Positions 17,911 to 63,592 of a stretch of DNA of 64,000 bases are shown in pieces. The DNA is from Mercenaria mercenaria (taxonomy: Eukaryota). How positions within the stretch are numbered: position 1 is the first letter of the stretch; every line of letters begins with the position of its first letter. Location of the stretch: assembly GCF_021730395.1 (NCBI RefSeq), contig NC_069369.1, positions 29,805,250 to 29,869,249 on the forward strand. The letters are read 5' to 3'. A program made the position numbers and the translations under genes. Under the pieces are notes generated by a model. That model ran no database searches and was not told the DNA's origin. It worked only from the letters and a program-made list of their open reading frames with translations.

Positions 17911-20610
17911 GTAGGGATAGATAAGCACTGATTGTCATGGTTAAACAGGTAGGGATAGATGCAGCACTGATTGTCATGGTTAAACAGGTAGGGATAGATA
18001 CAGCACTGATTGCCATGGTTAAACAGGTAGGGATAGATACAGCATTGATTGCCATGGTTAAACAGGTAGGGTTAGATACAGCACTGATTGTCATGGTTAA
18101 ACAGGTAGGGATAGATACAGCACTGATTGTCATGGTTAAACAGGTAGGGATAGATACAGCACTGATCGCCATGGTTAAACAGGTAGGGATAGATACAGCA
18201 CTGATTGTCAAGGTTAAACAGGTAGGGTTAGATACAGCAGTAGGGATAGATACAGCAGTGATTGTCATGGTTAAACAGGTAGGGATAGATACAGCACTGA
18301 TCGCCATGGTTAAAAAGGTAGGGATAGATACAGCAGTGATTGTCATGGTTAAACAGGTAGGGATAGATACAGCGGTAGGGATAGATACAGCACTGATTGT
18401 CATGGTTAAACAGATAGGGAAAGATTCTGCACTGATTGCCATGGTTTAAAAGGTAGGAACAGATACAGCAATGATTGCCATGTTTGAACAGGTAGGGTTA
18501 GATACAGCAGTAGGGATAGATACAGCACTGATTGTCATGGTTAAACAGGTAGGGATAGATACAGCACTGATCACCATGGTTAAAAAGGTAGGGATAGATA
18601 CAGCACTGATTGTCATGGTTTAACAGGTAGGGATAGATACAGCAGTAGGGATAGATACAGCACTGATTGTCATGGTTAAACAGGTAGGGATAGATACAGC
18701 ACTGATCGCCATGGTTAAAAAGGTAGGGATAGATACAGCACTGATTGTCGTGGTTTAACAAGTAGGGATAGATACAGCAGTAGGGATAGATACAGCACTG
18801 ATTGTCATGGTTAAACAGATAGGGAATGATTCTGCACTGATTGCCATGGTTTAAAAGGTAGGAACAGATACAGCAATGATTGCCATAGTTTAAAAGGTAG
18901 AAACAGATACAGCAATGATTGCCATGGTTTAACAGGTAGGGATAGATACTGCACTGATTGCCATGGCAGGTAGTGATAGGTACTGCACTGATTGCCATGG
19001 TTAAACAGGAAGTGATAGGTACAGCAATGATTGCCATGGTTTAACAGGTAGTGATAGGTACAGCAATGATTGCTGCGGATAGGTAAAACAGTGATTGCCT
19101 TGGTTAAACAGGTACCGGTAGGTAGGGGCCTCTTTGGGAAAGGTCACTGACTTCGAAACACTTACCCCTTATTGATTTAGATTTAAAACCTTGCTATGGA
19201 TGTAAAATTCTTTATTTGAAGAAGCCATGCAGTCGGTTTACAGAAGATCGGTGGTTCTACCGCTTGCCCACCAATGCATTAAATGGCTTGAACTAAAAAG
19301 CTTGAAAAAGTTGCCATATGACCTAAATTATGTCAGTGAAACTCTAAACTCGACAATAACGGCATCGTCACTGAAAAAAGCTGCAGTGGTTACAATGATT
19401 AAACATATAGGGATAAGTACAACAATTATTGCCACGGTTTAACAGGTAGTGATAGGTACCACACTGATTGCCATGGTTTAACAGGTAGTGATAGGTACAG
19501 CAATGATAGTCATGGTTTAACAGGTAGTGATAGGTACCGCAATGATGGCCATGGTTTAACAGGTAGTGATAGGTACAGCAATGATAGCCATGGTTTAACA
19601 GGTAGTGATAGGTACCGCAGTAATTGCCATGGTTTAACAGGTAGTGATAGGTACAGCAATGATAGCCATGGTTTAACAGGTAGTGATAGGTACAGCAATG
19701 ATGGCCATGGTTTAACATCAATAATTGCCATGGTTGAACAGGTAGTGATAGGTACCGCAATAATTGCCATGGTTTAACAGGTAGTGATAGGTACAGCAAT
19801 GATAGCCATGGTTTAACAGGTAGTGATAGGTACAGCAATGATTGCCATGGTTTAACAGGTAGTGATAGGTACATGTACAGCAATGATTGCCATGGTTTAA
19901 TAGGTAGTGACAGGTACCGCAATGATGGCCATGGTTTAACAGGTAGTGATAGATACAGCAATGATTGCCATATTTTAACAGGTAGTGATAGGTACAGCAA
20001 TGATTGCCATGGTTTAACAGGTAGTGATAGGTACATGTACAGCAATGATTGCCATGGTTTAATAGGTAGTGATAGGTACCGCAATGATGGCCATGGTTTA
20101 ACAGGTAGTGATAGATACAGCAATGATTGCCATAGTTTAACAGGTAGTGATAGGTACCGCAATGATGGCCATGGTTTAACATCAATAATTGCCATGGTTT
20201 AACAGGTAGTGATAGGTACTGCAATGATGGCCATGGTTAAACAGGTAGTGATAGATACAGCAATGATTGCCATAGTTTAACAGGTAGTGATAGGTACCAC
20301 AATGATGGCCATGGTTTAACATCAATAATTGCCATGGTTTAACAGGTGGTGATAGGTACCGCAGTGATGGCCATGGTTTAACAGGTAGTGATAGATACAG
20401 CAATGATTGCCATAGTTTAACAGGTAGTGATAGGTACAGCAATGATGGCCATGGTTTAACATCAATAACTGCCATGGTTTAACATCAATAATTGCCATGG
20501 TTTAACAGGTAGTGATAGGTACCGCAATGATGGCCATTGTTTAACAGGTAGTGATAGATACAGCAATGATTGCCATGGTTTAACAGGTGGTGATAGGCAC
20601 AGGTGTATGT
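17911..20610. repeat. 39-40-bp minisatellite, about 68 units, starting at the first intron base of SMYD5 exon 3's donor
   Basis: Unit gtagggatagatacagcactgattg(c/t)catggttaaacag. It reiterates the last 19 nt of exon 3 plus the GTAGGG donor. Downstream variant gtagtgataggtacagcaatgattgccatggtttaacag. The track's long ORFs here (179, 275 aa and others) are periodic artefacts. Confidence 0.9.
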
Positions 20611-25601: not shown

Positions 25602-26210
25602 GTAATAAGTAAATAATGGTGCAGTTAGCTGGTAACTTGTAAATAATGGTGCAGTTAGCTGGTAACTAGTAAATAATGGTGCAGTTAGCTGGTAACTTGT
25701 AAATAATGGTGCAGTTAGCTGGTGACTAGTAAATAATGGTGCAGTTAGCTGATAACTAGTAAATAATGGTGCAGTTAGCTGGTGACTAGTAAATAATGGC
25801 GCAGTTAGCTGGTGACTAGTAAATAATGGCGCAGTTAGCAGGTGACTAGTAAATAATGGCGCAGTTAGCTGGTGACTAGTAAATAAGGACGCAGTTAGCT
25901 GGTGACTAGTAAATAATGGCGCAGTTAGCTGGTGACTAGTAAATAATGGCGCAGTTAGCTGGTGACTAGTAAATAATGGCGCAGTTAACTGGTGACTAGT
26001 AAATAATGGCGCAGTTAGCTGGTGACTAGTAAATAATGGCGCAGTTAGCTGGTGACTAGTAAATAATGGCGCAGTTAGCTGGTGACTAGTAAATAAGGGC
26101 GCAGTTAGCTGGTGACTAGTAAATAATGGCGCAGTTAGCTGGTGACTAGTAAATAAGGGCGCAGTTAGCTGGTGACTAGTAAATAAGGGCGCAGTTAGCT
26201 GGTGACTAGT
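25602..26210. repeat. ~30-bp minisatellite, about 20 units, starting exactly at SMYD5 exon 10's donor
   Basis: Unit gtaa(c/t)tagtaaataatgg(t/c)gcagttagctg. The first unit begins with the donor GTAATAAGTAAAT. It continues after a 1-kb interruption at 27230-28850. Confidence 0.85.
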
Positions 26211-26235
26211 ATCCCCACATCACTTATTACCAGTG

Positions 26236-27019
26236 GTTACCTATTACCGGTGCAATCCGAAAATCTCGAATATTTACTTCCTGAAGAGCACTTCCGGAAT
26301 CCTTTGTTTACAAAATTACACGACTATTCGTCAAGTGTATCTTCCGTGAAATATGTCCTTTCTAAGGGTAAGTTACTTATTTATTCTATATGAATTGATA
26401 GAAAATATGTTTTTCCAGTGTACTTTACTGATAAACTTCAGTAACACTCGATGAATTATGAATAATTCCCCAGAAAATAAGTGACAGAAGGAGTTTCCTC
26501 TTGCAAATGACGTCATCAAGCACTGCCTCACACATGCGCTTTTTGGCGCCCTTTTTGATGAACAATACTACTGGACTAAACTTCCGACTTTCATTGTTAA
26601 GAACTGAGAAATCAAATTTCATTCAATATATTGTGTGCATGTTATGCATGTGGTAAGGTTTTTTGTTTATTTCATTACAGTTACAAGCTAAAGAGTGATA
26701 AGTGTGGTCATTGGACACACCTGAAATACTGCCGTGCTGTGAAGTTTTTAAGGAGTCATGATGAGTTCTTTAAATCACCACTGAATGTGATAATTCTGGT
26801 TTACCTGTGATTTTGACAAAAATGTGACAAAGTGCTGTTTGTGATATTATTCATTTATTTTATTCATGTTATATGTTATAATATACTGTTCTTCTCCACA
26901 GCAGATTAAATAATCCAGTAGCCAGAACATTAAGCTGTGTTTACTTGTTATTTTTGTGTTTCTGGATGGAAGTTTAATGCAGTAGCATTATTTCCCACAA
27001 TTCCACCGGTAATAGGTAA
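26236..27019. mobile_element. Candidate insertion interrupting the minisatellite, bounded by a 17-bp perfect inverted repeat
   Basis: gttacctattaccggtg at 26236-26252 and its reverse complement caccggtaataggtaac at 27003-27019. The interior is unique and non-repetitive. A further caccggtaattgg lies near 27209. Confidence 0.35.
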
Positions 27020-27229
27020 CTGTAAACATCCAAGATGGCGACCATGGTAGGTCAAAACATGACCTATTATTGACGATAATTCTGTTCCCAGGTGAATAAA
27101 ATTAACTTTTATTGAAAAGAAAATACTTTTTTCTTGAAAATGAGTTTAATTTTAGTAAGCATATGAATCAAATGTCATGTATTGTGGAATATCAATCATT
27201 AATACACCGGTAATTGGTACATCCAGGAT

Positions 27230-28850
27230 AAATAAGGGCGCAGTTAGCTGGTCACTAGAAGATAATGGTGCAGTTAGCTGGTCACTAGTAAATAATTGTG
27301 CAGTTAGCAGGTAACTAGTAAATAATGGTGCATTTAGCTGGTAACTAGTAAATAATGGTGCATTTAGCTGGTAACTAGTAAATAATGGTGCAGTTAGCTG
27401 GTAACTAGTAAATAATGGTGCAGTTAGCTGGTAACTAGTAAATAATGGTGCAGTTAGCTGGTAACTAGTAAATAATGGCGCAGTTAGCTGGTAACTAGTA
27501 AATAATGGCGCAGTTAGCTGGTAACTAGTAAATAATGGCGCAGTTAGCAGGTGACTAGTAAATAATGGCGCAGTTAGCTGGTGACTAGTAAATAATGGCG
27601 CAGTTAGCTGGTGACTAGTAAATAATGGCGCAGTTAGCTGGTAACTAGTAAATAATGGCGCAGTTAGCTGGTAACTAGTAAATAATGGTGCATGCTGGTA
27701 ACTAGTAAATAATGGTGCAGTTAGCTGGTAACTAGTAAATAATGGTGCAGTTAGCTAGTAAATAATGGTGCAGTTAGCTGGTAGCTAGTAAAAAATGTTG
27801 TGCCTTGGTGGTTAACTAGTAAATAATGTTGTGGCTAGCTGGTGACTAGTAAATAATAGTGCAGTTAGCTGGTATCTAGTAAATAATGTTGTGGCCAGCT
27901 GGTAACTACCGGTAGTAAATAATGTAGCGGCTGGCTGGTAACTCGTAAATAATATAGTGGCTGGCTGGTTACTAGTAAATAATGGTGTAGTTAGCTAATA
28001 ACTAGTAAATAATGTTGTGCCTTGCTGGTAACTAGTAAATAATGAAGCGGCAGGCAGGTAACTTGTAAATAACATAGTGACTGACTGGTAACCTGTAAAT
28101 AATATAGCAGCAGGCTGGTAACTAGTAAATGATGTTGTGGCCAGCTGGTAGCAGCTGGCTGGTAACAGGTAAATAATGTAGCGGCTGGCTGGTAACTTGT
28201 AAATAATGTAACAGCTGGCTGGTAACTGGTAAATAAAGCAGCGGCTGGCTGGTAACTAAAGTAGCGGCTGGCTGGCAACTGGTAAAGAACGTAGCGGCAG
28301 GCTGGCAACTTGTAAATAACGTAGTGGTTGGCTGGCAACTGGTAAATAATGTAGCGGCTGGCTGGTAACTGGTAAATAATGTAGTGGTTTGCTGGCAACT
28401 GGTAAATAATGTAGTGGCTGGCTGGTAACTGAGAAATAACGTAGCAGCTGGCTAATGTTGTGCCTTGCTGGCAACAAGTAAATAATGTCGCAGCTGGCTG
28501 GTAACTAGTAAATAATGTAGCAGCTGGCTGGTAACTAGTAAATAATGTAGCAGCTGGCTGGTAACTAGTAAATAATGTCGCAGCTGGCTGGTAACTAGTT
28601 AATAATGTTGTGCCTTGTGGCCAACAAATAAATAATGTTGTGCCTTGTTGGTAACTAGTAAATAATGTCGCAGCTGGCTGGTAACAAGTTAATAATGTTG
28701 TGCCTTGCTGGTAACAAGTAAATAATGTTGTGCCTTGCTGGTAACAAGTTAATAATGTTGTGCCTTGCTGGTAACAAGTTAATAATGTTGTGCCTTGCTG
28801 GTAACAAGTAAATAATGTTGTGCCTTTTTGGTAACAACTGAAAGTTGTGC
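27230..28850. repeat. Continuation of the ~30-bp minisatellite, about 50 units, degenerating toward the 3' side
   Basis: ggtaactagtaaataatgg(t/c)gcagttagct, drifting to ggtaacaagt(t/a)aataatgttgtgccttgct. The track ORFs 27991-28837 are artefacts. Confidence 0.85.
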
Positions 28851-32000: not shown

Positions 32001-32439
32001 TTGCCTACTGCCATCATGGATGTAACAGGTGAAGTACAGAAAAACTGACCAACCTGAAATGTATGCATACATGCTTTGATATTGTGACAGTTTAGCAAGA
32101 AACAATATATTTGATTCAACAATTAAAAGGAAAAAATGTGTCCACTTGAAAATATTGGTCTCATAAAAACAACTCTGTTACAATAGCCATTTTTATAGCA
32201 AAAGGACTTCTGCAACTCATAAAATTCCATTTAAAAGGGGAGATAGGGTCTGGTAGTTAAGGTGTCAAAACAGGAAGTTGTGGCTTCTGGTCTCAATAAG
32301 GTCATGACCATGCCTTCTCATATGACTCCGGTACTGTTTTTTCTTTCTTTCAAGAAACAGATTCCAGAGTGATTCAAAAAAGCTGAAAGCTTTCATTGCA
32401 ATTGAGTTCAAATAAATTAGTGTTAACTAAACATCCCAT

Positions 32440-32653
32440 TTAACCCTCATCATGCTGGACATGACTGATTTTGCCTTTGCGACCAGTGCAGAAAATGATC
32501 AGCCTGCACATCCGTGCAGTCTGATCATGATCTGCACTGGTCGCCATTCAGTCAGTATCTTTTTGGTTGGGATCCCTTTTAACAGTTAATGGTACTGTCC
32601 AAACTGGAAAGATGGACAAGTTCATTATAGAAATTTAGCAGGGTAAGGGTTAA
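32440..32653. mobile_element. MITE family B copy (ttaaccc...gggttaa ends), reverse orientation
   Basis: ttaaccctcatcatgctggacatgactg...gaccagtgcagaaaatgatcagcctgcacatccgtgcagtctgatcatgatctgcactggtcgc...ctggaaagatggacaagttcattatagaaatttagcagggtaagggttaa. Confidence 0.7.
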
Positions 32654-35741: not shown

Positions 35742-35933
35742 TTAACCTTTACCCTGATTAATTTCTATAATGATACAGTACCATTAACTGTTAAAAGGTA
35801 TGCTTACTAAAAATGATACTGACTGAATAGCAAACAGTGCAAATCATGATCAGACTACACTGATGTGCAGGCTGATCATGATCTATACTGGTCGCAAAGA
35901 CAGAACCAACTGTGTCAAGCATGGAAGGGGTTA
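35742..35933. mobile_element. MITE family B copy
   Basis: ttaacctttaccctgattaatttctataatgatacagtaccattaactgttaaaagg...caaacagtgcaaatcatgatcagactacactgatgtgcaggctgatcatgatctatactggtcgcaaag...ggggttaa. Confidence 0.7.
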
Positions 35934-36077
35934 AAGAAAAAAACGATGATACTGAATGACTGAAAACAGAAGAAATCACTGACAATAATAGCTCTGTTTC
36001 AGAATACTGTAAATATAGATCCTTCAGTGTTATGACTGCATATATTGATCAGCTGTTATATATTCATAGAATCTTAC

Positions 36078-36147
36078 CTTCAAAGTGGCCACACAGATGT
36101 ATTTTGATTGACTGTTTGTTGATGTCCATAACTTAACTACACCATCT
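36078..36147 (-). CDS. NACHT-WD40 exon
   Basis: Acceptor tttcttttttcag|A. (R)DGVVKLWTSTNSQSKYICVATLK. Donor AAG|GTAAGA. Confidence 0.8.
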
Positions 36148-36868
36148 CTGAAAAAAGAAACACAAATGAATGAATGAAGACAAACATTTGTAATTTGGTA
36201 ATTTTACTTGCATTAATTTTGCGGGCTTAAAATTACCAGTTCTCAGGGTGGGAGTGGGAATGAATTTGATTTGATTTCATATTTTAAAGATAAAATAGCA
36301 TAAATGAAAATTTACTTATTCTTTGGAATTAAATACTGTGGACAGATGCAAAATGAAAATTCAACTTCAGTTCCCCCACAAATATTGATGATTTCCAAAG
36401 TACATGTATCTGGTGCTGACCTGTTGAAATGTGCCAGATATTGAATTAACAGTCTGGCATGAAAGACAAATAAAAAGTATATGGGGGGAAAAACTACCTT
36501 TATTTCTGGAATTAAAGGGACATGCCTCCAGATCAACATTAAAGTTTCAGCGTTTTTGTTTTGTTTTGTTTTAAGCGTTTTTTTTTTGCTTTTTTTTTTA
36601 AAAAACAGATATTGAAACGAACAAACAAGTATTGTTTAAGTGGATGTTTTGTGTATAAACAACATACAGCTAAAATTCATATATTGTATATAAAAATTTA
36701 CCACCATCTTCATAAACATGTACACAATACAGAGTTGTAAATGTATTCTGTCTGATAATGAACGAGTAGTCTGACACACAAGGTTTCCAGACATACAATC
36801 AAAAGCAAACCTACATTACATTACCCTAACCCATCCCCAACCCCATATTAAGTGTCACAAAAGTTTAC

Positions 36869-37086
36869 CTGCTTCCTGTTAGTATAACTGGACTATCTCC
36901 GTTAAAGTTGCTGCACACAAAGGTCACTGGTGCATCATGTCCACCAATCACAGTCTGCGATTCCTGATCACATGACCACAACTTGATACTCTTGTCCAAT
37001 GAGGTGGTACACAGACGACCTTGGTTGTCAGAGGCAACTGAGAGCACCTTGTCAGAATGACCAGTCAAGCAGGAAAGTTCATTCGC
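36869..37086 (-). CDS. NACHT-WD40 exon (two WD repeats)
   Basis: Acceptor atcttaaatag|GCG. ANELSCLTGHSDKVLSVASDNQGRLCTTSLDKSIKLWSCDQESQTVIGGHDAPVTFVCSNFNGDSPVILTGS. Donor CAG|GTAAAC. Confidence 0.85.
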
Positions 37087-39075: not shown

Positions 39076-39238
39076 TTAACCTTAAGCACTTATTATTCAA
39101 AGGGGTGTTCACTGTAAATTTACTAACTGAATAGCGAACAGTGCAGACCATGATCAGACTGCATGGATGTGCAGGCTGATCTTGGTCTGCACTAGTCGCA
39201 AGGCAGATTCACTTGCTACTAGTAGGCTAAAGGTTAAG
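39076..39238. mobile_element. MITE family B copy (subfamily 2)
   Basis: cttaaccttaagcacttattattcaaaggggtgttcactgtaaatttactaactgaatagcgaacagtgcagaccatgatcagactgcatggatgtgcaggctgatcttggtctgcactagtcgcaaggcagattcacttgctactagtaggctaaaggttaag. Confidence 0.7.
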
Positions 39239-39779: not shown

Positions 39780-40345
39780 CCCCCGATGGCACTTTGAATG
39801 AATAGTTATGGCCGATGTTAGAGTTTAGGACCTTTGACCTACGGACCTGGGTCTTGCACGCGACAAGTCGTCTTACTGTGGTACACATTCATGCCAAGTT
39901 ATTTGAAAATCCATCCATGGATGACAAAGATATGGACCGGACACGCCCAACTATCATGAAAAATGACCTTTAACGTCTAAGTGTGACCTTGACCTTTGAG
40001 CTACGGACCTGGGTCTTGTGCGTGACACGTCGTCTTACTGTGGTACATATTCTTGCCAAGTTATTTGAAAATCCATCCATGGATGACAAAGATATGGACC
40101 GGACACGCCCAACTATCATGAAAAATGACCTTTAATGTCTAAGTGTGACCTTGACCTTTGAGCTACGGACCTGGGTCTTGCGCGCGACATGTCGTCTTAC
40201 TGTGGTACACATTCTTGCCAAGTTATTTGAAAATCCATCCATCGATGACAAAGATATGGACCGGACACAAAAACTGCGGACAGACTGACAGACTGTTCAA
40301 AAACTATATGCCTCCCTTCGGGGGCATAAAAAACCCAGCTGAGGT
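39780..40345 (+). mobile_element. Helentron-like satDNA carrier: 3 x ~183-bp units, (GACA/GACT)n and terminal hairpin
   Basis: Units gacctttgacctacggacctgggtcttgcacgcgacaagtcgtcttactgtggtacac.... Then ggacacaaaaactgcggacagactgacagactg and the hairpin atgcctccc ttcg ggggcat followed by aaaaaacc (40262-40345). Confidence 0.6.
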
Positions 40346-40375
40346 GTTTAGCTAGTCTGTAATAAATGCACTTAC

Positions 40376-40503
40376 ACTATAGCCTATATGGTTGATAGAG
40401 GCCATGTGTCCCTTCATACTGTACTTCACTTTACATGCACCATCTCCTGTGGACTCTTTTGTTGTTTCACCTGGTACATTGCCAATCTTTGATACATCCC
40501 AAA
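40376..40503 (-). CDS. NACHT-WD40 exon
   Basis: Acceptor aatgcttgcag|TT. (V)WDVSKIGNVPGETTKESTGDGACKVKYSMKGHMASINHIGYS. Donor AGT|GTAAGT. Completes ...SSDFNLKVWD from the previous exon. Confidence 0.8.
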
Positions 40504-41346
40504 CTGCAAGCATTTCAATTCTTCTAAGTACATGTATAGTACTGGTTTGCATTATTTCAATTTAATTCTTAGTCTTAAATTTTATTTGCCTGCTGTTCAC
40601 ATCATCACTCTCTGTGACATAACAAACAAAATATACGCCTGAAGGGTTATATCAGAGGAGGATGGGAGCAAAATTTAAAGAACTTCACAGTTGAAGCCCA
40701 AAGGACAGGAACAACAAAGGGAAGAAATTCTAAAAAAATTTCAAAGTCCACAGAAAACAAATCCTTTTCAGGTTCAGATATGTCAAAATACACCTAAAAA
40801 TTGAAGGTACATGTACCATCCATGTTGTACCCCAGAAAAATGGTCTTGGTTTTTCTTTTGGCTAATAATATAAAAGTTACAAAACAAGCTATTTTCATGC
40901 ATCAGCTCTATTCTGAAGATCTAACACCTCAGTGCAAGAAACTTTAGTGCAGAGTGGCAGTGTAACCTCCAGTCTAGAAATAGAGTGGATAAAGGGCGTC
41001 TAACTTCTGGGCAGGATATCCAAGTTGGGAAGTAAACCCTAGGCAAGATATCTGAATGGTGTGTGGTAGTCTAGCAGTAAAGATGTCACTCACTCAACTA
41101 GAAGATCAATGGTTCCAGTCTTGCTTGGGCCACAATGACATATCAACCATCAGAACCATTTTTTCTCCAGATAAAATGTATCTAATTACCTAGCAATGGT
41201 AATCTTATTTTGCAAATATACTGTCTCTGCAAATTCTGCTAACATAAAAGCTGCAGAATCTCTTCTTTCTACAGTAAGTGATTTGGAGCCAGGAACTTTT
41301 AACCAATAAACCACTGTTGAAGAATCCTGGACAAACATACACATAC

Positions 41347-41506
41347 CTTTGAGATTGAAATCACTGGAAGCTGTGATGATGAAGTCTGCAGTGTTTGACC
41401 ATCTACAATCTGTGACCCAGTCATCATGTGCATTATGTATGGTATGTAAGGGTGTAGGATTCTGCTCGTCAAATGTACAGGCAATAATGTCCCATATTCT
41501 CACACT
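41347..41506 (-). CDS. NACHT-WD40 exon (WD repeat)
   Basis: Acceptor ttgttctttgtacag|AGT. SVRIWDIIACTFDEQNPTPLHTIHNAHDDWVTDCRWSNTADFIITASSDFNLK. Donor AAAG|GTATGT. Confidence 0.85.
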
Positions 41507-42261
41507 CTGTACAAAGAACAATTGATAATTAGAAATACAGGTGTACGAAAATGTTTATTTCAAAGTAAGTTTGGATGTTTTGCTGAGACCCACCAACAAT
41601 TTAATTTATGAACTACGTTGGTGAGAACACATTTTTCCAATACATGTGTTATCATGGCCCTTGTCAGTGAACCTAGAGCAACTCAATGCCTGGCTCTGAT
41701 CTTATATATGTGGCTTATCTAAAGTTTACTGATAATATTTCAAACAAATATATTTAATGTAGACTGGATTATAGATATTTGTCACCAATTTGTAAACAAT
41801 GCCACCTGTGATTCCAAAATATCTGTAACAAGTCTATCAACCTGCATCATGTGTTTAAGCACTTACACTCAAATTTCAAAAACATGAACACTGATTATAA
41901 GACTGCTAAGAATAAAAATCTCTAAATATCTATCTGTAGTAACTAATGAAAAAGGTACACATGTACTTGGTATCTTGTCAGTCTATTTCCAAGACTTAAA
42001 AACTTTAATCTTAAATAACTTGTCAGTCTATTTCCAAGACTTAAAAACTTTAATCTTAAATAAAAACACAGATCATAAGGTTTCCTATAAAGAATAGTCT
42101 CTAGAAGATTTTTGTGTACTGTTTCATGCAAGCAAATAGTGCTGTATCTTTTCCAGTCCTCATGATAAGAGGCTCTAGATACATTTCTTTAATAGAGAAA
42201 TAATCCTTTTGGGCTAAAAACATTTTTATGTAGTATACGGTAATTAAATGCATTATAATTT

Positions 42262-42417
42262 GTATATCAAAGAGCAGGTTACAGAAGACTATGTTACAAT
42301 TTTTACATCAAAGAGCAGTTACAGTAGACTATGTTACAATTTTTACATCAAAGAGCAGTTACAGTAGACTATGTTACAATTTTTACATCAAAGAGCAGTT
42401 ACAATAGACTATGTTAC
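42262..42417. repeat. 40-bp minisatellite, about 3.7 units, starting at the first intron base of the NACHT-WD exon 42418-42535 donor
   Basis: Transcript-sense unit GTAACATAGTCTACTGTAACTGCTCTTTGATGTAAAAATT. The first unit is the donor itself (GAGATATG|GTAACATAG). Confidence 0.85.
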
Positions 42418-42535
42418 CATATCTCTGCTGCCTGTAGCAATCCTGTTTCCATTTTGATTGAAGGCACAACTTGTCACAGGTCCAGTGTGTGTTCCCATAA
42501 CACAAATTCTAGTTGGTACACTCTTCAAGATAGTC
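42418..42535 (-). CDS. NACHT-WD40 exon (WD repeat), paralogue of exon 43498-43652
   Basis: Acceptor ttggtttttgttacag|G. (R)TILKSVPTRICVMGTHTGPVTSCAFNQNGNRIATGSRDM. Donor ATG|GTAACA. Phase 2 to 0. Confidence 0.8.
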
Positions 42536-42879
42536 CTGTAACAAAAACCAAAAACGGAAGGTTTTTTTAACATTTTATTTAAGGATATGCAATTCATATA
42601 AAATTCATATGTTCTCTGGCCATTTCCCCCACATATTCTCCGTTTGGATCACTTCAAACCCTGGATAACTTGAATATAGCCTAAATTGAATGATGGACCA
42701 GTCCATTTTAGAAATTAAGCAGGATAAAGGTTAAAAGTTGAAATCCATGAATTTACATCCCCTTGAAATGTCCACTCAGGCTAAAGCCACAAAACTGCAT
42801 GGTCATAAATATAAAGGATTTGGCAGATTTTCTTGATTTGAACTTACATTCGAAAAATATTCCATTAAAACATTTTTGT

Positions 42880-43440
42880 ACACAGAAAATATGCTGTCTA
42901 CTCAGTAATTTTGGCAAACATCTGCATTTACATTTCATTTGAACAGTGTTTCAATATTTCATGGACATTCAACTGAGATGGCAGGAAAGTAATTTTAGCT
43001 TACTTATGTCTAACTGTATTTTTTTGAATTGATTTTTCATACACAGAACAGGTACAGTCCACTCATGTAATAGCAAAGTAATTCTGGTATAAATCTGCTC
43101 TCACTTTCCATCTGAACGGTGTTCTATGTTTGCCATGGTGAAATGAAACTACAGTAAAAGTTAAGTGCTGTTTCTTTTTGTTAGAGCGAAAATACCACAC
43201 ATGGTCGGATTTAGGTTGTAAATTTCCAGCATGGTTTCCTGCTGGCGTCTTTCAAAATTAGAGATCATGCCTGGGATTTAGTAAGAAATTTGAAACTTAA
43301 ATGGTATGCTTTTATATCATTTATGCTGAAAGAAAGTGTGAGGCATTAAACAAATGAGTTGGGACTTGTATGTGAACAATACTGGACAGAAAACTTAAGT
43401 GGTCGGAAACTGGTTGTGCCGGGATACTTCAATTGATTCT
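42880..43440 (-). pseudogene. Decayed tandem copies of the exon 43498-43652 segment (pseudo-exons)
   Basis: 43040-43140 reverse complement ...CCAGAATTACTTTGCTAT.ACATGAGTGGACTGTAC.TGTTCTGTGTATGA matches the exon 43498-43652 coding sequence with frameshifts. 42890-42960 reverse complement matches that exon's 3' end plus donor (...TTCAAATGAAATGTAAATGCAGATGTTTGCCAAAATTAC). Confidence 0.5.
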
Positions 43441-43497
43441 CATGCACATATTAACATGTGCAGTCTTTTTGTAATTTTGGCATACATCTGCACTTAC

Positions 43498-43652
43498 CTT
43501 TCATTTGAACTGTATTTCAATGGATTTTCATACACAGAACATGTACAGTCCACCGAAGTGATAGCAAAGTAATTCTGGCATATGTCTGCACTAAGAACTG
43601 GTTGTGTTAGAGTTGTGACTACACACGAATTCCTCAAGTTAACCTTCAGTAT
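43498..43652 (-). CDS. NACHT-WD40 exon (degenerate WD repeat), tandem paralogue of exon 42418-42535
   Basis: Acceptor ggttgttggttttttttacag|ATA. ILKVNLRNSCVVTTLTQPVLSADICQNYFAITSVDCTCSVYENPLKYSSNE. Donor AAAG|GTAAGT. Phase 0 to 2, which feeds the phase-2 start of the next exon. Confidence 0.65.
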
Positions 43653-43780
43653 CTGTAAAAAAAACCAACAACCAGTGTGCAAAACAAAGGGCACTTAAAA
43701 AAGCAAATCAGCCAGCGAATATTTTGATTTCAGCGCTTAACAACAAATTTACAGTCCCTTCAAACAAAATTAATGTACAA

Positions 43781-43984
43781 ACTCTAAGAAATTTCTATAA
43801 TGAACTTGTCCATCTTTCAATTTGGACAGTACTATAACTGTTAAAAGGGGTGCTTACCAAAAAGATACTGACTGAATGACGAACAGTGCAGATCATGATC
43901 AGACTGCACAGATGTGCAGGCTGATCGTGTTCTACATGGTCGCAAAGGCAGACTCAATCTTGTCCAGCATTATAAGGGGTTAAA
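43781..43984. mobile_element. MITE family B copy
   Basis: ...aaatttctataatgaacttgtccatctttcaatttggacagtactataactgttaaaaggggtgcttaccaaaaagatactgactgaatgacgaacagtgcagatcatgatcagactgcacagatgtgcaggctgatcgtgttctacatggtcgcaaaggcagactcaatcttgtccagcattataaggggttaa. Confidence 0.7.
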
Positions 43985-44041
43985 TGCATTTATTCTGAAT
44001 GTACTCCGTATTTTTCAAAAAAAGAAAGAAAATCATTGTAC

Positions 44042-44145
44042 CTTTGCTGAACAGTCATCTGACCCTGACAGTAAGAAAGCAGACGACATAAACTTCAGAC
44101 ATCTTACAGAAGCTGTATGCACCTGACTAGAATATAACTCAGTAC
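44042..44145 (-). CDS. NACHT-WD40 exon (WD repeat)
   Basis: Acceptor tgtgttattttgcag|GT. (G)TELYSSQVHTASVRCLKFMSSAFLLSGSDDCSAK. Donor AAG|GTACAA. Confidence 0.8.
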
Positions 44146-44399
44146 CTGCAAAATAACACATACAATCAGCACGAGATCTTTTATTCAAAACAAGTACAGG
44201 TAATTCAACCTTAAAATTCAGTGGTTAAGGATGACCCCAGGATCAATAATTTGTAGGTTTAACTAGTACCACTATGTGACATGAACTAAGCACTACATAG
44301 CTATACCATAGGATAACACAGGCTGCTTGTAAAACATGTATGACCACCCTGAATGCATGCTGGAGGTAAATAAGTGAGTAATATTGACAGCTATAACCC

Positions 44400-44950
44400 A
44401 AAATCTTCACCACTTATTGACTGAAAACTGTTTTCAGTCTTGAGGTCAATGTATATTGACCTTTGATCTACTGACTGCCAAACTAAAAGGGATCATGTTC
44501 TGACCCCAGGCTATCAATCTACAAAGTTTGACAGGATACTTCTGCTGTTATAGAACAAAACCAATTTTCAGTCTGAAGGTCAATGTGACCTTGACCTTTG
44601 ACACACTAATCCCAAAAACAATAGTGATCTCTTGATGACCACAGACAATCATCCTATGAAGTTCGATTATTGCGGGTCCAAGCCTTCTACAGTTATTGAG
44701 CAGAAACCTTTTTCAGTCCAAAGGTCAATGTAACCTTGACCTTGGATCTACTGACCCCCAAAACAATTGGGGCCATCTGATCACTACATACAATCATCAT
44801 ATGAAGTCTGACCAATGTTGGTCCGAGCCTTCTTCAGTTACTGAGCAGACACTGATTACATCTGAACTGAATGTAACTGTGACCTTGACCCCCAATATGT
44901 TTATCAAAGGCAATCATAGTATGGACATTGGCCATTTTTATAAGCTAAAG
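44400..44950. repeat. ~150-bp satellite array, about 3.5 units, no terminus recognised
   Basis: Units ...cagtct(t/g)(g/a)aggtcaatgt..gaccttgacctttga.c.actga.c.ccaaa.... Confidence 0.5.
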
Positions 44951-45274
44951 TGTTCTTGAGTTAAATTTTTTTATCAAAGTAACTATGACACTTCTGCTCT
45001 GACTTGCAATTAGCCTGACATTCTTTGTAAACCACAGACATTCTTTCTTCCAACATCACCTTAAGTGATGTAAAAAAAGACCTCCTACAAATATGCACCC
45101 ACAGTAATTACTCTGCTGAAATTGTGAATAGTGTGCCAGTGATTAGGGATCAACATTTTCGTAGGGTTTAAATCAACTACAATAAGGGTCAAATGACTTT
45201 AATCTATGGGCTGACAAATTAACCAGTCCTTAAGAATATACTAATTTTCTAAACATAACTTTTTGATCACTTAC

Positions 45275-45422
45275 CAGACAGTACATCGTGCACTTTGATT
45301 ACACCTGAATGGTATCCAATAGCAACCAAATCCTGTTGTGGTGATATAGCAATGGAAACTGCTGGGCCTAGTTGTTCTGTGCCAACAGTTATGATTGGTT
45401 TTCCAAGATGACCTGACCACAC
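45275..45422 (-). CDS. NACHT-WD40 exon
   Basis: Acceptor attatataacag|GTG. VWSGHLGKPIITVGTEQLGPAVSIAISPQQDLVAIGYHSGVIKVHDVLS. Donor TCTG|GTAAGT. Confidence 0.8.
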
Positions 45423-45863
45423 CTGTTATATAATAGTTGACATGAGCAGATCAAACAGTATATAATTAGAAAGGAATGGATGTTGTCATGTTGTCTCTAA
45501 AGTTTAAAATAAACAAAAATTTATTTATTTTGAAATGCTTTTATCATGTTAAATCCTTTTATTTTTAGTGACAAAAAAATGGCATAAGGGATTTCCCTTT
45601 TTAATAACTGACCATTATACACAGGTTTGACCTACCGGTTTACTGTAGGGGTGAACTGACTTTAATCTGTATTTAAATCAAAGCTTCATAAGCAACAATT
45701 TTTTTTTTCTTATTTCTTTTTAATACAACCTGCGTGCGAATCTACTCAAATTTTATTTCATGTCCTAGCAAGTCTGAACTTGGAATTTAAAAAGACTTAT
45801 AAGATGGACTGTACACATAGGTCACTGGTGAGTTGAATAATCGAACATGAAGTATGACCCTAC

Positions 45864-45962
45864 CTTGACCTTGTGATCATCGCTAACTGTAATGAGTTCC
45901 TTGCCAGTTGGTGAAAACGTCAACTTATTTATTGGTAACGCATGTCCCTCAATGTTACCAAC
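45864..45962 (-). CDS. NACHT-WD40 exon (WD repeat)
   Basis: Acceptor tatgaactttcag|GTT. VGNIEGHALPINKLTFSPTGKELITVSDDHKVK. Donor AAG|GTAGGG. Confidence 0.8.
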
Positions 45963-46168
45963 CTGAAAGTTCATAAGAATAGTACAATATAATAACACAA
46001 TGGACTTTTTTTTGGGTAAAATGGTAAATACACTTGAGATCTAATGGAATCAATTATCTGCCTTTGTCAGGGGGTAAATTTATAAGATTTTTCTTACAAA
46101 AATATCTAAAAGATAGGTCCATATTTAAAACTGTCTATATGTAAAGTAAATGAAGTAAATTTCAATAC

Positions 46169-46288
46169 TTGTGAGCCAGTATCTGCTGCCCATAGTTTAA
46201 CATCTCCGTCTAGAGCTGCTGAGGCAATATGACGTCCTGACGGTGAGTAGGCCACATCTCGTACTGACGACTGGTGACCTCGCAATAC
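46169..46288 (-). CDS. NACHT-WD40 exon (WD repeat)
   Basis: Acceptor ttgttgacattacag|GTA. VLRGHQSSVRDVAYSPSGRHIASAALDGDVKLWAADTGSQ. Donor CAA|GTATTG. Confidence 0.85.
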
Positions 46289-46779
46289 CTGTAATGTCAA
46301 CAATTAACTAATTATCTTTCAACAGCAAAACATACCATAACATGGAGAAGCTACAGCTATATGGATATTTAGTATTTCAACTTGATGTGTCTCCACAGGA
46401 CACTGGTGCCCCCCAATTCCTGTGACTGTATGCATATTTCTGACTAAGTCAATGGCCATAACTTGAATGGTCTGGCTGTGTGAAAATCCAATGAAAACAC
46501 CAGGTGTACATCCTCATATGCTGAATAATAATCCTGTAAGGTCTGATGACTCTAGGTCAAATACTTTTTAAGATATGTACAACACAAATTCCGATTAATG
46601 AAAATACAGACAAGGGCAACTCTAAGTGCAACCACAAAAATTTGGGGTGGGGGTGGGGGGCACATAAACATCCTAAAATACTTAGGTTTTCATCTGTCAG
46701 GTAAGTCAAATGGCAGAACATAACATTAACTAGAAATGTGTCCATGGGACACAGATGCCCCCACTACATGACAAAGGAC

Positions 46780-48262
46780 ACAGATCAACTTTGTGAAAAC
46801 AATATGTACAAAGTCAGGGGCCATAACTCCTACATAACTGAATGAATCTGGACGCGAAACCCCAGGTGCACAACTACACATGCTGACCAACATTCCTGTA
46901 AAGTTTTGTGACTCTACATCAAATACTTTTGGAGCTAGGCATGACACATTCTTGGAAGGACAAGGGCAAATACTTTTGGAGCTACGCGCGACACAACATT
47001 AAAATGACCAAGTTTTAACTAAGTCAGGGGCCATAACTCCTACATAACTGAATGAATCCGGACGCGAAACCCCAGGTGCACAACTGCACATACTGACCAA
47101 CATTCCTGTAAACTTTGGTGACTCTAGGTCAAATACTTTTGGAGCTACGCGCGACACAACATTAAAATGACCAAGTTTTAACTAAGTCAGGGGCCATAAC
47201 TCCTACATGACTGAATGAATCCGGACGCAAAACCCCAGGTGCACAACTGCACATGCTGACCAACATTCCTGTAAACTTTGGTGACTCTAGGTCAAATACT
47301 TTTGGAGCTACGCGCGACACAACATTAAAATGACCAATTTTTTACTAAATCAGGGGCCATAACTCCTACACGACTGAATGAATCTGGATGCAAAACCCCA
47401 GTTGCACAACTACACATGCTGACCAACATTCCTGTAAAGTTTTGTGACTCTACGTCAAATACTTTTGGAGCTAGGCATGACAAATTCTCGGAAGGACGGA
47501 CGGACAAGGGCAAATACTTTTGGAGCTACGCGCGACACAACATTAAAATGACCAAGTTTTAACTATTAAAGTCAGGGGCCATAACTCCTACACACCTGAA
47601 TGAATCCGGACGCGAAACCCCAGGTGCACAACTGCACATGCTGACCAACATTCCTGTAAACTTTGGTGACTCTAGGTCAAATACTTTTGGAGCTACACGC
47701 GACACAACATTAAAATGACCAATTTTTAACTAAGTCAGGGGCCATAACTCCTACACGACTGAATGAATCTGGACGCGAAACCCCAGATGCACAACTGCAC
47801 ATGCTGACCAACATTCCTCTAAACTTTGGTGACTCTAGGTCAAATACTTTTGGAGCTACGCGCGACACAACATTAAAATGACCAATTTTTTACTAAATCA
47901 GGGGCCATAACTCCTACACGACTGAATGAATCTGGATGCAAAACCCCAGGTGCACAACTACACATGCTGACCAACATTCCTGTAAAGTTTTGTGACTCTA
48001 CGTCAAATACTTTTGGAGCTAGGCGCGATACAACACTAAAATGACCAATTTTTACAAAGTCAGGGGCCATAACTCCTACAAGACTGAATGAATCTTGACG
48101 CGAAACCCCAGGTGCACAACTACACATGCTGACCAACATTCCTGTAAAGTTTTGTGACTCTACGTCAAATACTTTTGGAGCTAGGCGCGACACATTCTCG
48201 GAAGGACAGACGGATGGATGGACAGACGGACAATGGCAAATCTATATGCTCCCCCAAAGTGG
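46780..48262 (+). mobile_element. Helentron-like satDNA carrier: about 8 units (150-205 bp), (GGAC/GATG)n and terminal hairpin
   Basis: Units ...aagtcaggggccataactcctaca..actgaatgaatc.ggacgc.aaaccccaggtgcacaact.cacatgctgaccaacattcctgtaaa.ttt.gtgactcta.gtcaaatacttttggagcta.gcgcgacac.... Terminus ggaaggacagacggatggatggacagacggac... then hairpin atgctccccc aaagt gggggcat followed by aaaaaac (48190-48262). Confidence 0.6.
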
Positions 48263-49649: not shown

Positions 49650-50420
49650 GAGTAGATCCAATTAGATGGTCTGGACAAGTGGATCCAATCAGTAATTCAA
49701 GGGCCATAAATCAAAAGTGCCTGGGCGGATTTGGCTAGTTATCGAACTTGGCTAAGGTCTTATGGCCAAATACATTTTGTTTAAGTTTGGTGAAGATTGG
49801 ATGAGAAATGTTCGACTGAGAGAGCAGACAAGAGTAAAAAGGCCGATTTTTTTATAATTCAAGGGCCGTAACTCCAAAATGCCTAGACCGACTTAGCTAG
49901 TTATCGAACTTGGCCGAGGTCTCACGGTCAAACACATTTTGTTCAAGTTTGGTGAAGATTGGATGAGAAATGTTCGACTTAAGAGTGCGGACAAGAGTAA
50001 AAAGGAGGATTTTTCGGTAATTCAAGGGCCATAACTCCAAAATGCCTGGACCGATTTGGCTAGTTATCGAGCTTGTCTGAGGTCTCATGGTCAAACACAT
50101 TTTGTTCAAGTTTGGTGAAGATCGGATGAGAAATGTTCGACTTAAGAGTGCGGACAACATTAAAAAGGCTGATTTTTGGTAATTCAAGGGCCATAACTCC
50201 AATACGCCTGGACCGATTTGGCTAGGTATCGAACTTGGCCGAGGTCTTATGGTCAAACACATTTTGTTTAAGTTTGGTGAAAATCAGATGAGAAATGTTC
50301 AACTTAGAGTGCGGACAAGCTTTGTGACAGACAGACAGACACACAGACGGACAGACAGACAGACACACAGACTGGAGTAAATCAATATGTCTCCCACACC
50401 ACTATGTGGTGGGAGACATA
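49650..50420 (+). mobile_element. Helentron-like satDNA carrier: about 4.5 x ~150-bp units, (GACA)n and terminal hairpin
   Basis: Units ...aattcaagggcc(a/g)taactccaaaatgcctgg.ccga.ttggctagttatcgaacttggc..aggtct.a.ggtcaaacacattttgttcaagtttggtgaagat.ggatgagaaatgttcgact.aagag.gcggacaag.... Then gtgacagacagacagacacacagacggacagacagacagacacacagac and hairpin atgtctcccacaccactatgtggtgggagacat. Confidence 0.6.
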
Positions 50421-52760: not shown

Positions 52761-54830
52761 CAATTACGACAGTTAACAGGTGTGTTAAGCATCAATCCCT
52801 TCTCACTAGTAGTTAATGCGATACAAGCTTACATACAAAAAGCTTAACCAGAAATTGCTAAGTCTAACAAGGGGTACAACTTCATAACAAGAGGACCATG
52901 ATGGTCCTGAATCGCTCACCTCTTTCCACATGACCCAGTTTTGAGTATGACGTCGTTTTTTCTATTATTTGACATAGTGACCTAGTTTTTGAGCTCATTT
53001 GACCCAGTTTTGAACTTGACCTAGATATTATCAAGATAAAAATTCTGACCAATTTTCATGAAGATCCATTGAAAAATATGGTCTCTAGAGGTCAAAAGAT
53101 TTTAATAATTTTAGACCTACTGACCTAGTTTTTGACCGCAGTTGACCCAGTTTCAAACCTGACCTAGATATCATCAAGATGAACATTCAGACCAAATTTC
53201 ATACAGATCCCATGAAAAGTATGGCCTCTAGAGAGGTCACAAGGTTTTTTTTATTATTTGACCTACTGACCTAGTTTTTTATGGAACGTGACCCAGATTC
53301 AAACTTGACCTAGATATCATCAAGGTGAACATTCTGACCAATTTTTATGGAGATCCATTTGCAAGTATGGTCTCTAGAGAGGTCACAAGGTTTTTCTATT
53401 TTTAGACCTAATGACCTAGTTTTTGACCGCACATGACCCTGTTTAGAACTTGACCTAGATATCATCAAGATGAACATTCAGATCAATTTTCATACAGATC
53501 CCATGAAAAATATGGCCTTTAGAGAGGTCACAAGGTTTTTCTATTATTTGACCTACTGACCTAGTTTTTGATGGCACCTGACCCACTTTCAAATCTGACC
53601 TAGATATCATCAAGATAAACATTCAGACCAATTTTCATACAGATCCCATGAAAAATATGGCCTCTAGAGAGGTCACAAGGTTTTTCTATTATTTGACCTA
53701 CTGACCTAGTTTTTGACTGCACGTGACCCACTTTCGAACTTGACCTAGATATCATCAAGGTGAACATTCTGACTAATTTTCATGAAGATCTCATGAAATA
53801 TATGGCCTCTAGAGAGGTCACAAGGTTTTTCTATTTTTAGACCTACTGACCTAGTTTTTGACCGCACATGATCCAGTTTCGAACTTGACCTAGATATCGT
53901 CAAGATGAACATTCAGACCAACTTTCATACAGATCCCATGAAAAATATGGCCTCTAGAGAGGTCACAAGGTTTTTCTATTATTTGACCTACTGACCTAGT
54001 TTTTGAAGGCACGTGACCCAGTTTCGAACTTGACCTAGATATTATCAAGATGAACAATCTGACCAATTTTCATGAAGATCTTGTGAAATATATGGCCTCT
54101 AGAGAGGTCACAAGGTTTTTCTATTTTTAGACCTACTGACCTAGTTTTTGAAGGCACGTGACCCAGTTTCAAACTTGACCTAGATATCATCAAGGTGAAC
54201 ATTCTGACCAAGTTTCATGAAGATCTTGTGAAATATATGGCCTCTAGAGAGGTCACAAGGTTTTTCTATTTTTAGACCTACTGACCTAGTTTTTGATGGC
54301 ACATGACCCAGTTTCGAACTTGACCTAGATATCATCAAGATGAACATTCTGACCAACTTTCATAAAGATCCCATGAAAAATGTGACCTCTAGAGTGGTCA
54401 CAAGCAAAAGTTTACGGACGGACGCACGGACGACGGACGACGGACACCGCGCGATCACAAAAGCTCACCTCGTCACTTTGTGACAGGTGAGCTAAAAAAT
54501 GGAAAATAAAGTTATGGAACCTGTGCATAGCAGGTCAGATTATCAGAGTAAAGAGGTGCATTAAGTGTTAATCTATTCTCCCTAGTAGTTACTGAGATAC
54601 AAAGTTACATATAAAAGCTTTGTCAGACATTGCAGTCAAAAAAGGAACATAACAAAGAAAACAGAATTATGGAGTCTGTACACTCCCTGTCAGATAATTA
54701 TAGTGAACAAGTGTGTGAAGTTTCAATCCATTCCTTCAAGTTGATACTGAAGGTAAAGCTTACATACAACATTAAACAAATCCAGACATTGAGGCTGATG
54801 AACAGGTGAGTGCAATAGCTCTACCTTGCC
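52760..54830 (+). mobile_element. Helentron-like satDNA carrier: about 9.5 x ~167-bp units, (GGACG)n and hairpin terminus at 54410-54520, followed by two ~140-bp flank units
   Basis: Units ...ttgacctactgacctagtttttga..gcac.tgacccagtttcgaacttgacctagatatcatcaagatgaacattc.gaccaa.tttcat..agatc.catgaaaaatatggcctctagagaggtcacaaggtttttctatt.... Terminus acggacggacgcacggacgacggacgacggac...gatcacaaaagctcacctcgtcactttgtgacaggtgagc. The flank units (54520-54830) also follow the terminus at 52760-52900. Confidence 0.6.
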
Positions 54831-62140: not shown

Positions 62141-62356
62141 AAGAATTTGTTCATTATCTTTGGGGCAACCTCTGGTACCTGGTCAAAAATCTGTGGGAGA
62201 TGTGCATCTAACATGTTAAACCATCAATACTGACTACAACTGGGGAACCATAACTTACATTTGGGACCTCTCATACCAGTCTTTATTGTGGAAGATGAGC
62301 TGGTTCCATGTTATCTAAACCATCCATAAACAATTTAAGAAAGAACCACAGCTTAC

Positions 62357-62504
62357 CTTTGGGACAACCTCTGGTAACCAGTCTAGATTGTGTGGAAGAT
62401 GTGCTGGTTCCATGTTGTCTAAACCATCAATAAACACTACAAGAGGGGAACCACAGTAGGTTGCAGACTCCTGTAACATCTCTTCAAACTTAGCAACCAA
62501 GTTC
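62357..62504 (-). CDS. NACHT-WD40 exon (Walker B)
   Basis: Acceptor ctatttgcag|G. (K)NLVAKFEEMLQESATYCGSPLVVFIDGLDNMEPAHLPHNLDWLPEVVPK. Donor AAG|GTAAGC. The hhhhDGLD NACHT Walker B motif. Confidence 0.85.
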
Positions 62505-62556: not shown

Positions 62557-62768
62557 TAACCTTTAGCCGCTAAATTTTTAAAATGGACTCATCCATCATT
62601 GAATTTGGGCAATACCATTTATTATTTAAAGGGGTGTTTACTGAAAATTTACTGACTGAATAGTGAGCAGGGCAGACCATGATCAAACTGCATGGATGTA
62701 CTGGCTGATCTTGGTCTGCACTGATCGCAAAGGCAGAATCACTTGCCGTCAACAGGCTAAGGTTTAAT
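62557..62768. mobile_element. MITE family B copy (subfamily 2)
   Basis: ttaacctttagccgctaaatttttaaaatggactcatccatcattgaatttgggcaataccatttattatttaaaggggtgtttactgaaaatttactgactgaatagtgagcagggcagaccatgatcaaactgcatggatgtactggctgatcttggtctgcactgatcgcaaaggcagaatcacttgccgtcaacaggctaaggtttaa. Confidence 0.7.
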
Positions 62769-63378: not shown

Positions 63379-63592
63379 TTTAACCCTTACCCTGCTAAAT
63401 TTCTATAATGAACTTGTCCATCTTTCAATTTGGACAGTACTATTTACTGTTAAAAGGGATGCATACCAAAAAGATACTGACTGAATGGCAAACAGTGCAG
63501 ATTTTTATTAGACTGCACAGATGCGCAGGCTGATCAAGATCTACACTGGTCGCAAAGGCAGAATCTATCGTGTCCAGCATGATAAGCGTTAA
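63379..63592. mobile_element. MITE family B copy
   Basis: ttaacccttaccctgctaaatttctataatgaacttgtccatctttcaatttggacagtactatttactgttaaaagggatgcataccaaaaagatactgactgaatggcaaacagtgcagatttttattagactgcacagatgcgcaggctgatcaagatctacactggtcgcaaaggcagaatctatcgtgtccagcatgataagcgttaa. Confidence 0.7.

Follow-up and report, generated by a model that had tools for sequence, protein, structure and literature searches.

Two conserved exons of a TEP1-like gene of Mercenaria mercenaria and the decayed copies of an exon end in the intron between them

On the minus strand of the 64,000-nt stretch of Mercenaria mercenaria DNA analysed here (the window), exon A (43498-43652) and exon B (42418-42535) of a WD-repeat gene are neighbours, and fragments resembling the end of exon A recur in the intron between them. 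A sequence-only reading had taken the two exons for recognisable paralogues and the fragments for traces of repeated local duplication as a way of adding WD blades. The question that this locus raises is whether a blade was gained here at all, and what the fragments are. Genome analysis led to a long gene with open frames from 63999 down to about 32000, in an AT-rich window (GC 0.32-0.41); plus-strand ORFs over the exon A/B region are short and none is notable. Along the minus-strand frames lie a P-loop (GKPGTGKS, near 63900), an exon of Walker-B type (PLVVFIDGLDNMEP...) and helical exons, after which WD repeats follow in a long series. Searched against Pfam, the 5' exons gave HTH_NWD1 (42.7 bits, cut-off 27), NPHP3_N (37.9 bits, cut-off 24.8) and AAA_16 (36.9 bits, cut-off 32.6), while NACHT, from a hand-spliced partial query, fell just below its cut-off (25.2 bits, cut-off 26.7); a NACHT/STAND P-loop NTPase with a winged-helix/helical domain is present. 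The WD region matched propellers specific to TEP1, namely Beta-prop_TEP1_2nd (PF25047; 100.1 and 111.3 bits, cut-off 89), which covers the exon A/B region, and Beta-prop_TEP1_C (PF25048; 38.2 and 36.0 bits, cut-off 32). Orthology with annotated TEP1 proteins is collinear, the TEP1-like protein of Mya arenaria (WAR22045.1) giving 29 collinear tblastn matches between 63996 and 32746, which cover about 27 coding blocks. An exhaustive HMMER search returned three full-length relatives, named TEP1-like in M. arenaria and telomerase protein component 1-like in the scallop Mizuhopecten yessoensis (XP_021378535.1) and in Priapulus caudatus (XP_014669734.1). Identity over the WD region is 64% with Mya, 51% with scallop, 40% with Priapulus and 35% with P0001, a JGI transcript-like fragment; the closest database proteins to the window's protein are 47-64% identical. 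The homologue search with the WD region found mainly generic WD40 proteins of <600 aa, P0001 being the only TEP1-type fragment, and that with the NACHT region found three weak matches, one of them named telomerase protein component 1 (Apostichopus). The gene is a bivalve TEP1-like gene (telomerase/vault protein component 1) on the minus strand, encoding a NACHT STAND ATPase with three WD propellers. The window begins inside the NACHT domain, and the TROVE and DUF4062 (TIR-like) parts, which are present in the N-terminal parts of the orthologues, would fall upstream of its 64000 end.

Both exons were found on the minus strand exactly with the translations and coordinates first assigned to them. 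Exon A (155 nt, ILKVNLRNSCVVTTLTQPVLSADICQNYFAITSVDCTCSVYENPLKYSSNE(R)) encodes a degenerate WD blade, the second blade of the TEP1 second propeller, and aligns with residues 1889-1935 of the Mya TEP1-like protein (42.6% identity, E-value = 5e-8, tblastn). The exon upstream of it (44041-44146, minus strand), where the PF25047 match begins, contributes strands A and B of the propeller's first blade and the beginning of strand C; it ends with ...LLSGSDDCSAK in phase 0 and has a tblastn match with Mya residues 1848-1883. Exon B (118 nt, (R)TILKSVPTRICVMGTHTGPVTSCAFNQNGNRIATGSRDM) matches Mya residues 1938-1973 (56.8% identity), and its WD blade is completed by the downstream exon (41348-41506, minus strand), which starts with SVRIWDI in phase 0 and matches Mya residues 1974-2025 (66.7% identity, both by tblastn). 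Splice junctions were read by eye against the orthologues and are marked here by a slash. The splice sites had been called strong for both exons, which is true of exon A, where they are near-consensus (acceptor T8-ACAG, with TTTTTTTTACAG flanking the exon, and a perfect donor, AAG/GTAAGT), but not of exon B, flanked by TTTTTGTTACAG upstream and by GTAACA downstream, whose donor (ATG/GTAACA) is a moderate one with a 6/9 match to MAG/GTRAGT, without +5G and +6T. Concerning the phases, exon A starts in phase 0 and ends with two spare bases, and the first base of exon B completes the codon (AG/G = R), bearing out the interlocking that had been noticed; together the two exons make 273 nt, or 91 codons. 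If exon A alone were skipped, exon B would read DYLEECTN and run into a stop after 8 codons, and the two exons must therefore be included together. Both are moreover collinear with the orthologous protein. From frame and orthology we infer that exons A and B are spliced as constitutive neighbouring exons, as had been proposed, and not as mutually exclusive ones.

A blade of the exon A type was identified in all four orthologues (Mya, Mizuhopecten, Priapulus and P0001), collinear in each case and placed between the '..SGSDD..' and the 'GHTGPVT' blades. The aligned segments are TLTQPVLSADICQNYFAITSVDCTCSVYE in this window, THTQPVLCVSAAKNYIATGSEDCQCCVFP in scallop, GHTKGIMGMDICWDMFALSSEDCTVSLYE in Mya and GHKGAVVAVAAADSYIVTASEDFTAYVYP in Priapulus; the TQPVL motif is common to the window and scallop, and DCT.S.YENP.KY to the window and Mya. 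The blade also has its counterpart in the Pfam profile of the TEP1 second propeller. With exon A, PF25047 matches residues 14-258 over profile positions 1-222 (111.3 bits), and deletion of the 52 residues of exon A lowers the score to 91.7 bits and costs the match profile positions 1-49, so that it begins at position 50. Alignment of orthologues had been suggested as a means of finding when an extra blade arose; it shows a blade that was already there in Mya, scallop, Priapulus and P0001 and contradicts the view of exon A as an addition. The VYE of exon A, previously explained as an LWD whose WD dipeptide was lost after duplication, has LYE, VFP, VYP and VYL at the same site in the orthologues, with Y or F replacing W; since WD is absent from every orthologue, VYE is ancestral and that explanation falls. 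The window's blade is somewhat more degenerate than those of its relatives, with TLTQ for THTQ (loss of the His of the GH motif) and TSVD for GSED. The aligned sequences indicate that the degenerate blade of exon A has belonged to the TEP1 second beta-propeller since before the divergence of bivalves and priapulids, and the blade count of TEP1 propellers appears stable from priapulids to bivalves.

A sequence search detected no TEP1 structure in the PDB. An AlphaFold2 model was obtained for the corresponding segment of the scallop orthologue (51% identical) from a four-sequence alignment (mean pLDDT 76.7, pTM 0.65). In it, the strands of the homologous blade at 179-184, 188-193 and 198-202 have a pLDDT of 92-95, and the fourth strand follows a long, less confident loop. 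By homology to this model, the blade of exon A is predicted to fold regularly. Foldseek matched the scallop model only to generic propellers in the PDB, and the best single-domain matches were eight-bladed, namely Tako8 (target-normalised TM-score 0.91) and ODA16. Structure modelling had been proposed as a way of counting the blades; carried out on the scallop orthologue, it does provide the blade with regular strands, but the eight-bladed best matches do not fix exactly how many blades each ring has.

It had further been proposed that one of exons A and B is a tandem copy of the other, made by a recent local duplication which added a WD blade and after which the upstream copy degenerated. The two peptides do align above shuffled sequences (Smith-Waterman score of 39 vs 20.2 +/- 3.9, a score of 39 being reached by 0.25% of the shuffles), but the likeness stays at the generic level of WD blades: with four other blades of the protein, exon B's blade reaches scores of 76, 73, 68 and 64, against 37 with the blade of exon A, and the latter scores 40 with another (third) blade. 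Their acceptor tracts agree at 18 of 20 nt, a match of a polypyrimidine tract (E-value = 0.46) beyond which blastn of 43400-43760 against the whole window found no DNA likeness between the two exons. Adjacent as they are, exons A and B are not closer to each other than to other exons, either in DNA or in protein. Their interlocking phases speak for the duplication, while the phases themselves differ (0 to 2 in exon A vs 2 to 0 in exon B), as do the lengths (155 vs 118 nt) and the boundaries. Nor do they have the same WD-blade layout, as had been stated. Judged by homology with the scallop model, one blade has the last part of its strand C and its strand D in exon A, which continues with strands A, B and C of the next; that next blade gets its strand D from exon B, where strands A and B of the following, canonical WD blade come after it. 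The ILK with which both exons begin was also offered as a sign of paralogy, although it occupies non-equivalent positions: in exon A it takes the C-strand place that (I/L)W(D) fills in canonical repeats, and in exon B it belongs to the long C-D loop. Neither tripeptide is conserved, the orthologues having VVN, TIL, KVN or KIL at the exon A site and ELK, a gap or ELA at the exon B site. When the blade's presence in the outgroup orthologues and in the Pfam TEP1 profile, and the absence of WD from all of them, are added, such a duplication becomes very improbable. The comparisons indicate instead that nothing but the distant paralogy common to all WD blades relates exons A and B, and that their shared ILK start is a coincidence.

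What has been duplicated lies in the intron. An array of five units of about 84-98 bp runs from 43589 to 42836 on the minus strand and comprises the 3' half of exon A and four intronic units, for which the register was anchored on the motifs GCAGAyrTATGCCArAATTAC and GTTCAAATGAAAGGTAAGT. The first unit, U1 (43492-43589), consists of the last 92 nt of exon A and the donor GTAAGT; it is the founder and still coding (ADICQNYFAITSVDCTCSVYENPLKYSSNER). U2 (43405-43491) follows directly after the donor, starts with GCAGATGTATGCCAAAATTAC and shows 71% identity to U1; in-frame stops interrupt it, the reading in the exon frame being ADVCQNYKKTAHVNMCMRIN and then a stop. It is followed by about 260 nt found only once in the window and then by a unit tail (43099-43145, ..GTTCAGATGGAAAGTGAGA, with a decayed donor), possibly the displaced end of U2. 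U3 (43003-43098) is the best-preserved pseudo-copy, with 85% identity to U1 and a donor-like end (GTAAGC), and reads ADLYQNYFAIT, a stop and VDCTCSVYEKSIQKNTVRHK in the exon frame. U4 (42926-43009) is 79% identical to U1, has several stops and ends with AAT/GTAAAT. Finally, U5 (42836-42925) is 74% identical to U1, ends with AAT/GTAAGT and reads ADVCQNY, a stop and VDSIFSVYKNVL... in the exon frame; at 42735-42830 the end of the array adjoins a fragment of a dispersed repeat. The units are significant head-to-tail direct copies of the exon end and its donor. Against a database of the 64-kb window, blastn aligned 43494-43592 with 42995-43101 (78.5% over 107 nt, E-value = 8e-18) and 43453-43615 with 42886-43031 (68% over 164 nt, E-value = 1e-15), a further pair being 43513-43592 with 43425-43494 (U1 with U2), and no copy of the units was found elsewhere in the window. 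The copied segment begins 63 nt inside exon A, so that no acceptor was copied, and stops interrupt the homologous frame in all four intronic units (4/4), which are non-coding. Two frame-broken copies of the 3' half of exon A plus its donor had been recorded between the exons; they are real and backed by blastn, but there are four. Both blastn and the aligned units confirm them as decayed local duplicates of the exon end. That local duplication was here a way of adding WD blades is not upheld, since every intronic copy carries stops and no blade was gained. U1 is 71-85% identical to each of the intronic units, and these are 62-73% identical to one another; this star-like set of identities fits the pattern expected if U1 were under selection and the other units were drifting independently.

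We consider it highly probable that exons A and B are conserved constitutive exons of the TEP1-like gene, and that the array between them is recent, straddles a donor, is spliced out, is neutral and has added no blade. A segment of about 100 bp across the 5' splice site of exon A, made up of the last 92 nt of the exon, its donor and the bases that open the intron, would have been duplicated in tandem repeatedly, presumably by slippage or unequal exchange. The first copy would have stayed joined to the acceptor and 5' half of exon A, and splicing from this first, exon-attached donor to the next acceptor would remove the downstream units with the intron. The extra units, probably selectively neutral, would be tolerated and would then decay, gaining stops, indels, the unrelated stretch of about 260 nt and adjoining repeat fragments. 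It is because the downstream copies are removed with the intron that donor-straddling duplications can be tolerated, whereas an acceptor-straddling one would set a truncated copy before the real exon, and selection should act against it. Donor-like sites do occur downstream, AAT/GTAAGT in U5 and GTAAGC in U3, and frame and orthology suggest that they are not used. The unit, at about 98 nt, is not divisible by three, and a downstream donor, if used, would cause a frameshift.

Similar arrays exist elsewhere in the gene. At 62154-62456 (minus strand) the 3' part of the NACHT exon occurs with its donor (..FIDGLDNMEPAHLPHNLDWLPEVVPK/gtaagc) in about three copies, at a period near 104 nt: the last 85 nt or so of this exon, whose end is at 62324, recur together with the donor into the downstream intron. 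TRF reports 1.9 copies with a period of 104 at 62245-62436, and blastn supports the repeats at 80.7% (E-value = 5e-20) and 76% (E-value = 2e-13). The intron after exon B opens, at its very first base, with a minisatellite of 40 bp (42253-42417, minus strand; 4.1 copies, 95% matches), every unit of which starts with the donor hexamer GTAACA. In the intron upstream of exon A there is also a dispersed SINE-like repeat (43789-43986), which has many copies in the window. Altogether TRF detected 13 tandem arrays in the 32-kb span of the gene, covering about 18% of it; 3 of about 30 donors and no acceptor are touched by an array, and this difference is not significant (binomial p about 0.125). Given 13 arrays over about 18% of the span and about 30 donors, a few contacts with donors are expected, and we do not take them as an enrichment. 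We regard it as very unlikely that donor-anchored tandem arrays are a recurrent feature of this gene, whether as a mutational hotspot at the junctions or as decoy donors and pseudo-exons that modulate the splicing of a long STAND gene of immune type.

The intronic units of exon A could be explained in three other ways. Should they be functional, acting as decoy 5' splice sites, as a poison pseudo-exon tuning splicing or intron removal, or as a regulatory RNA structure, then the donor-like ends kept in several of them (U3 and U5) would make sense, and the exon-end-plus-donor array at 62154-62456 and the donor-bearing minisatellite that starts at exon B's donor could be cited as parallels. The units have however decayed in a star-like manner, with stops and indels, and no core is conserved in them beyond what was inherited from the exon. 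Rfam, searched over 40000-46500, returned only a sub-threshold match to a miRNA family, which lies inside the dispersed SINE-like repeat, and the 13 arrays of the gene make no more contacts with donors than chance and purifying selection would leave. A function of the units is accordingly improbable, though somewhat less so than the remaining two explanations. One of these reverses the direction, a pre-existing intronic minisatellite or transposon fragment having been exonised as the 3' half of exon A. That half is indeed one unit of an array that is unbroken across the donor, but FAITSVDCTCSVYENPLKY is homologous to FALSSEDCTVSLYENPFKY of Mya and to the blade of scallop and Priapulus, so that the coding sequence predates the array, and the unit is absent from the rest of the window. 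Since U1 encodes residues with homology to the blades of Mya and scallop, the copying went from exon to intron, and the reverse is extremely improbable. Equally hard to credit is an artefact of assembly, with the units arising from haplotypes that were mis-assembled or from reads that were collapsed or expanded. That bivalve genomes are heterozygous and rich in repeats is no specific support for such an artefact, and the units differ from one another by 15-38%, with indels and the unrelated 260-nt stretch, and are thus unlike allelic duplicates. A tandem, donor-straddling duplication of the end of exon A remains the reading that we prefer.

For annotation, exon A, its poor WD signature notwithstanding, should be kept as a constitutive coding exon of the TEP1-like gene, and gene finders should not take the look-alike fragments at 42836-43491 for exons. 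The locus is also a clean example of how donor-straddling duplications can survive, since the gene stays whole through its first copy and splicing removes the others; such duplications alone do not grow a repeat protein. Beyond annotation its importance is little.

Compared with known systems, the locus is a routine case of known phenomena. TEP1 has been described as TROVE, the TIR-like DUF4062 and NACHT followed by WD40 repeats, with the WD40 domains speculated to be a signal-sensing module as in APAF-1 (bioRxiv 10.64898/2026.05.01.722283). The architecture of the window is as described there for human TEP1 (bioRxiv 10.64898/2026.05.01.722283), and it differs from its relatives in an exon A blade that is slightly more degenerate, the GH histidine being gone. 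With the degenerate-blade propellers of APAF-1 and other STAND ATPases there is no notable difference: in the exon A blade the pattern of strands is preserved, as is the structural Asp (TSVD / GSED), with Y or F in place of W-D, and the blade of an orthologue is modelled as regular with high confidence. Tandem duplication of exons, with some copies lying unannotated in the introns beside them, is said to have been surveyed by Letunic, Copley and Bork in 2002 (Hum Mol Genet). As in such cases, a local direct duplication has here copied sequence of exon A into the intron next to it, and similarity to the exon makes the copies recognisable. The present locus differs in that the array copies only the 3' 92 nt of exon A and the donor, with no acceptor; in that the unit of about 98 nt, not divisible by 3, is reiterated in the manner of a minisatellite and all its copies are dead; and in that exons A and B lack the properties of a duplicated pair. 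The intronic minisatellites and tandem arrays typical of bivalve genomes share the period of about 84-98 nt, the degenerate units and the occurrence of many arrays in the same introns. What distinguishes the array of exon A from them is that its founder is a coding sequence that appears to be under selection, hence the star-like identities among its units.

The downstream boundary of exon B (42418-42535, minus strand), the coding exon that follows the degenerate WD-blade exon A, is also the onset of a 40-bp minisatellite (42253-42417; 4.1 copies, 95% matches), which begins exactly at intron base +1. The donor hexamer GTAACA opens each unit, placing a donor-like site every 40 nt, and read-through from exon B into the repeat encounters a stop at the third codon. 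Tandem repeats make up ~18% of the gene span. Among them are large intronic arrays of 145-163-bp units at 52957-54404, 46963-48194, 49692-50319 and 39829-40268 (up to 10 copies, 87-95% matches), which look transposon- or satellite-derived. Past the 3' end of the gene lie two very long minisatellites, of 39 bp (17891-20602) and 30 bp (25608-28837), whose periodicity yields long open frames (e.g., repeated LTAPLFTSHQ). The 18-30 kb interval in which they fall has a strongly positive GC skew (0.13-0.30). A dispersed SINE-like repeat of ~190-200 bp, represented at 43789-43986, is also found in numerous copies across the introns in both orientations with 78-90% identity (63397-63586, 32437-32636, 35775-35935, 62572-62741, 39096-39211 and others). 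It contains a hairpin that produces a sub-threshold Rfam match to MIR1033, scoring 30 bits where the gathering score is 70.

Concerning the encoded propellers, the AF2 model of the scallop (Mizuhopecten yessoensis) orthologue, corresponding to window exons 44146-35000, has eight-bladed rather than seven-bladed propellers as its top single-domain Foldseek matches, including Tako8 (target-normalised TM-score 0.91) and ODA16 (0.73). Two WD blades, at 36868-37086 (ANELSCLTGHSDKVLSVASDNQGRLCTTSLDKSIKLW..) and about 36060-36203 (..GHDAPVTFV..LTGSRDGVVKLW), are found in the scallop and Priapulus caudatus proteins and are absent from the 'partial' Mya arenaria model. Their absence from the latter record is probably an annotation gap.

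A further array lies at the end of the NACHT exon (62154-62456, minus strand): roughly three tandem repeats of the exon's 3' ~85 nt (..FIDGLDNMEPAHLPHNLDWLPEVVPK) together with the GTAAGC donor, with a period of ~104 nt, run into the downstream intron. The copies share 76-81% identity and contain stops. This array is of the same type as the one seeded by the 3' half and donor of exon A (43498-43652), both being exon-end arrays.
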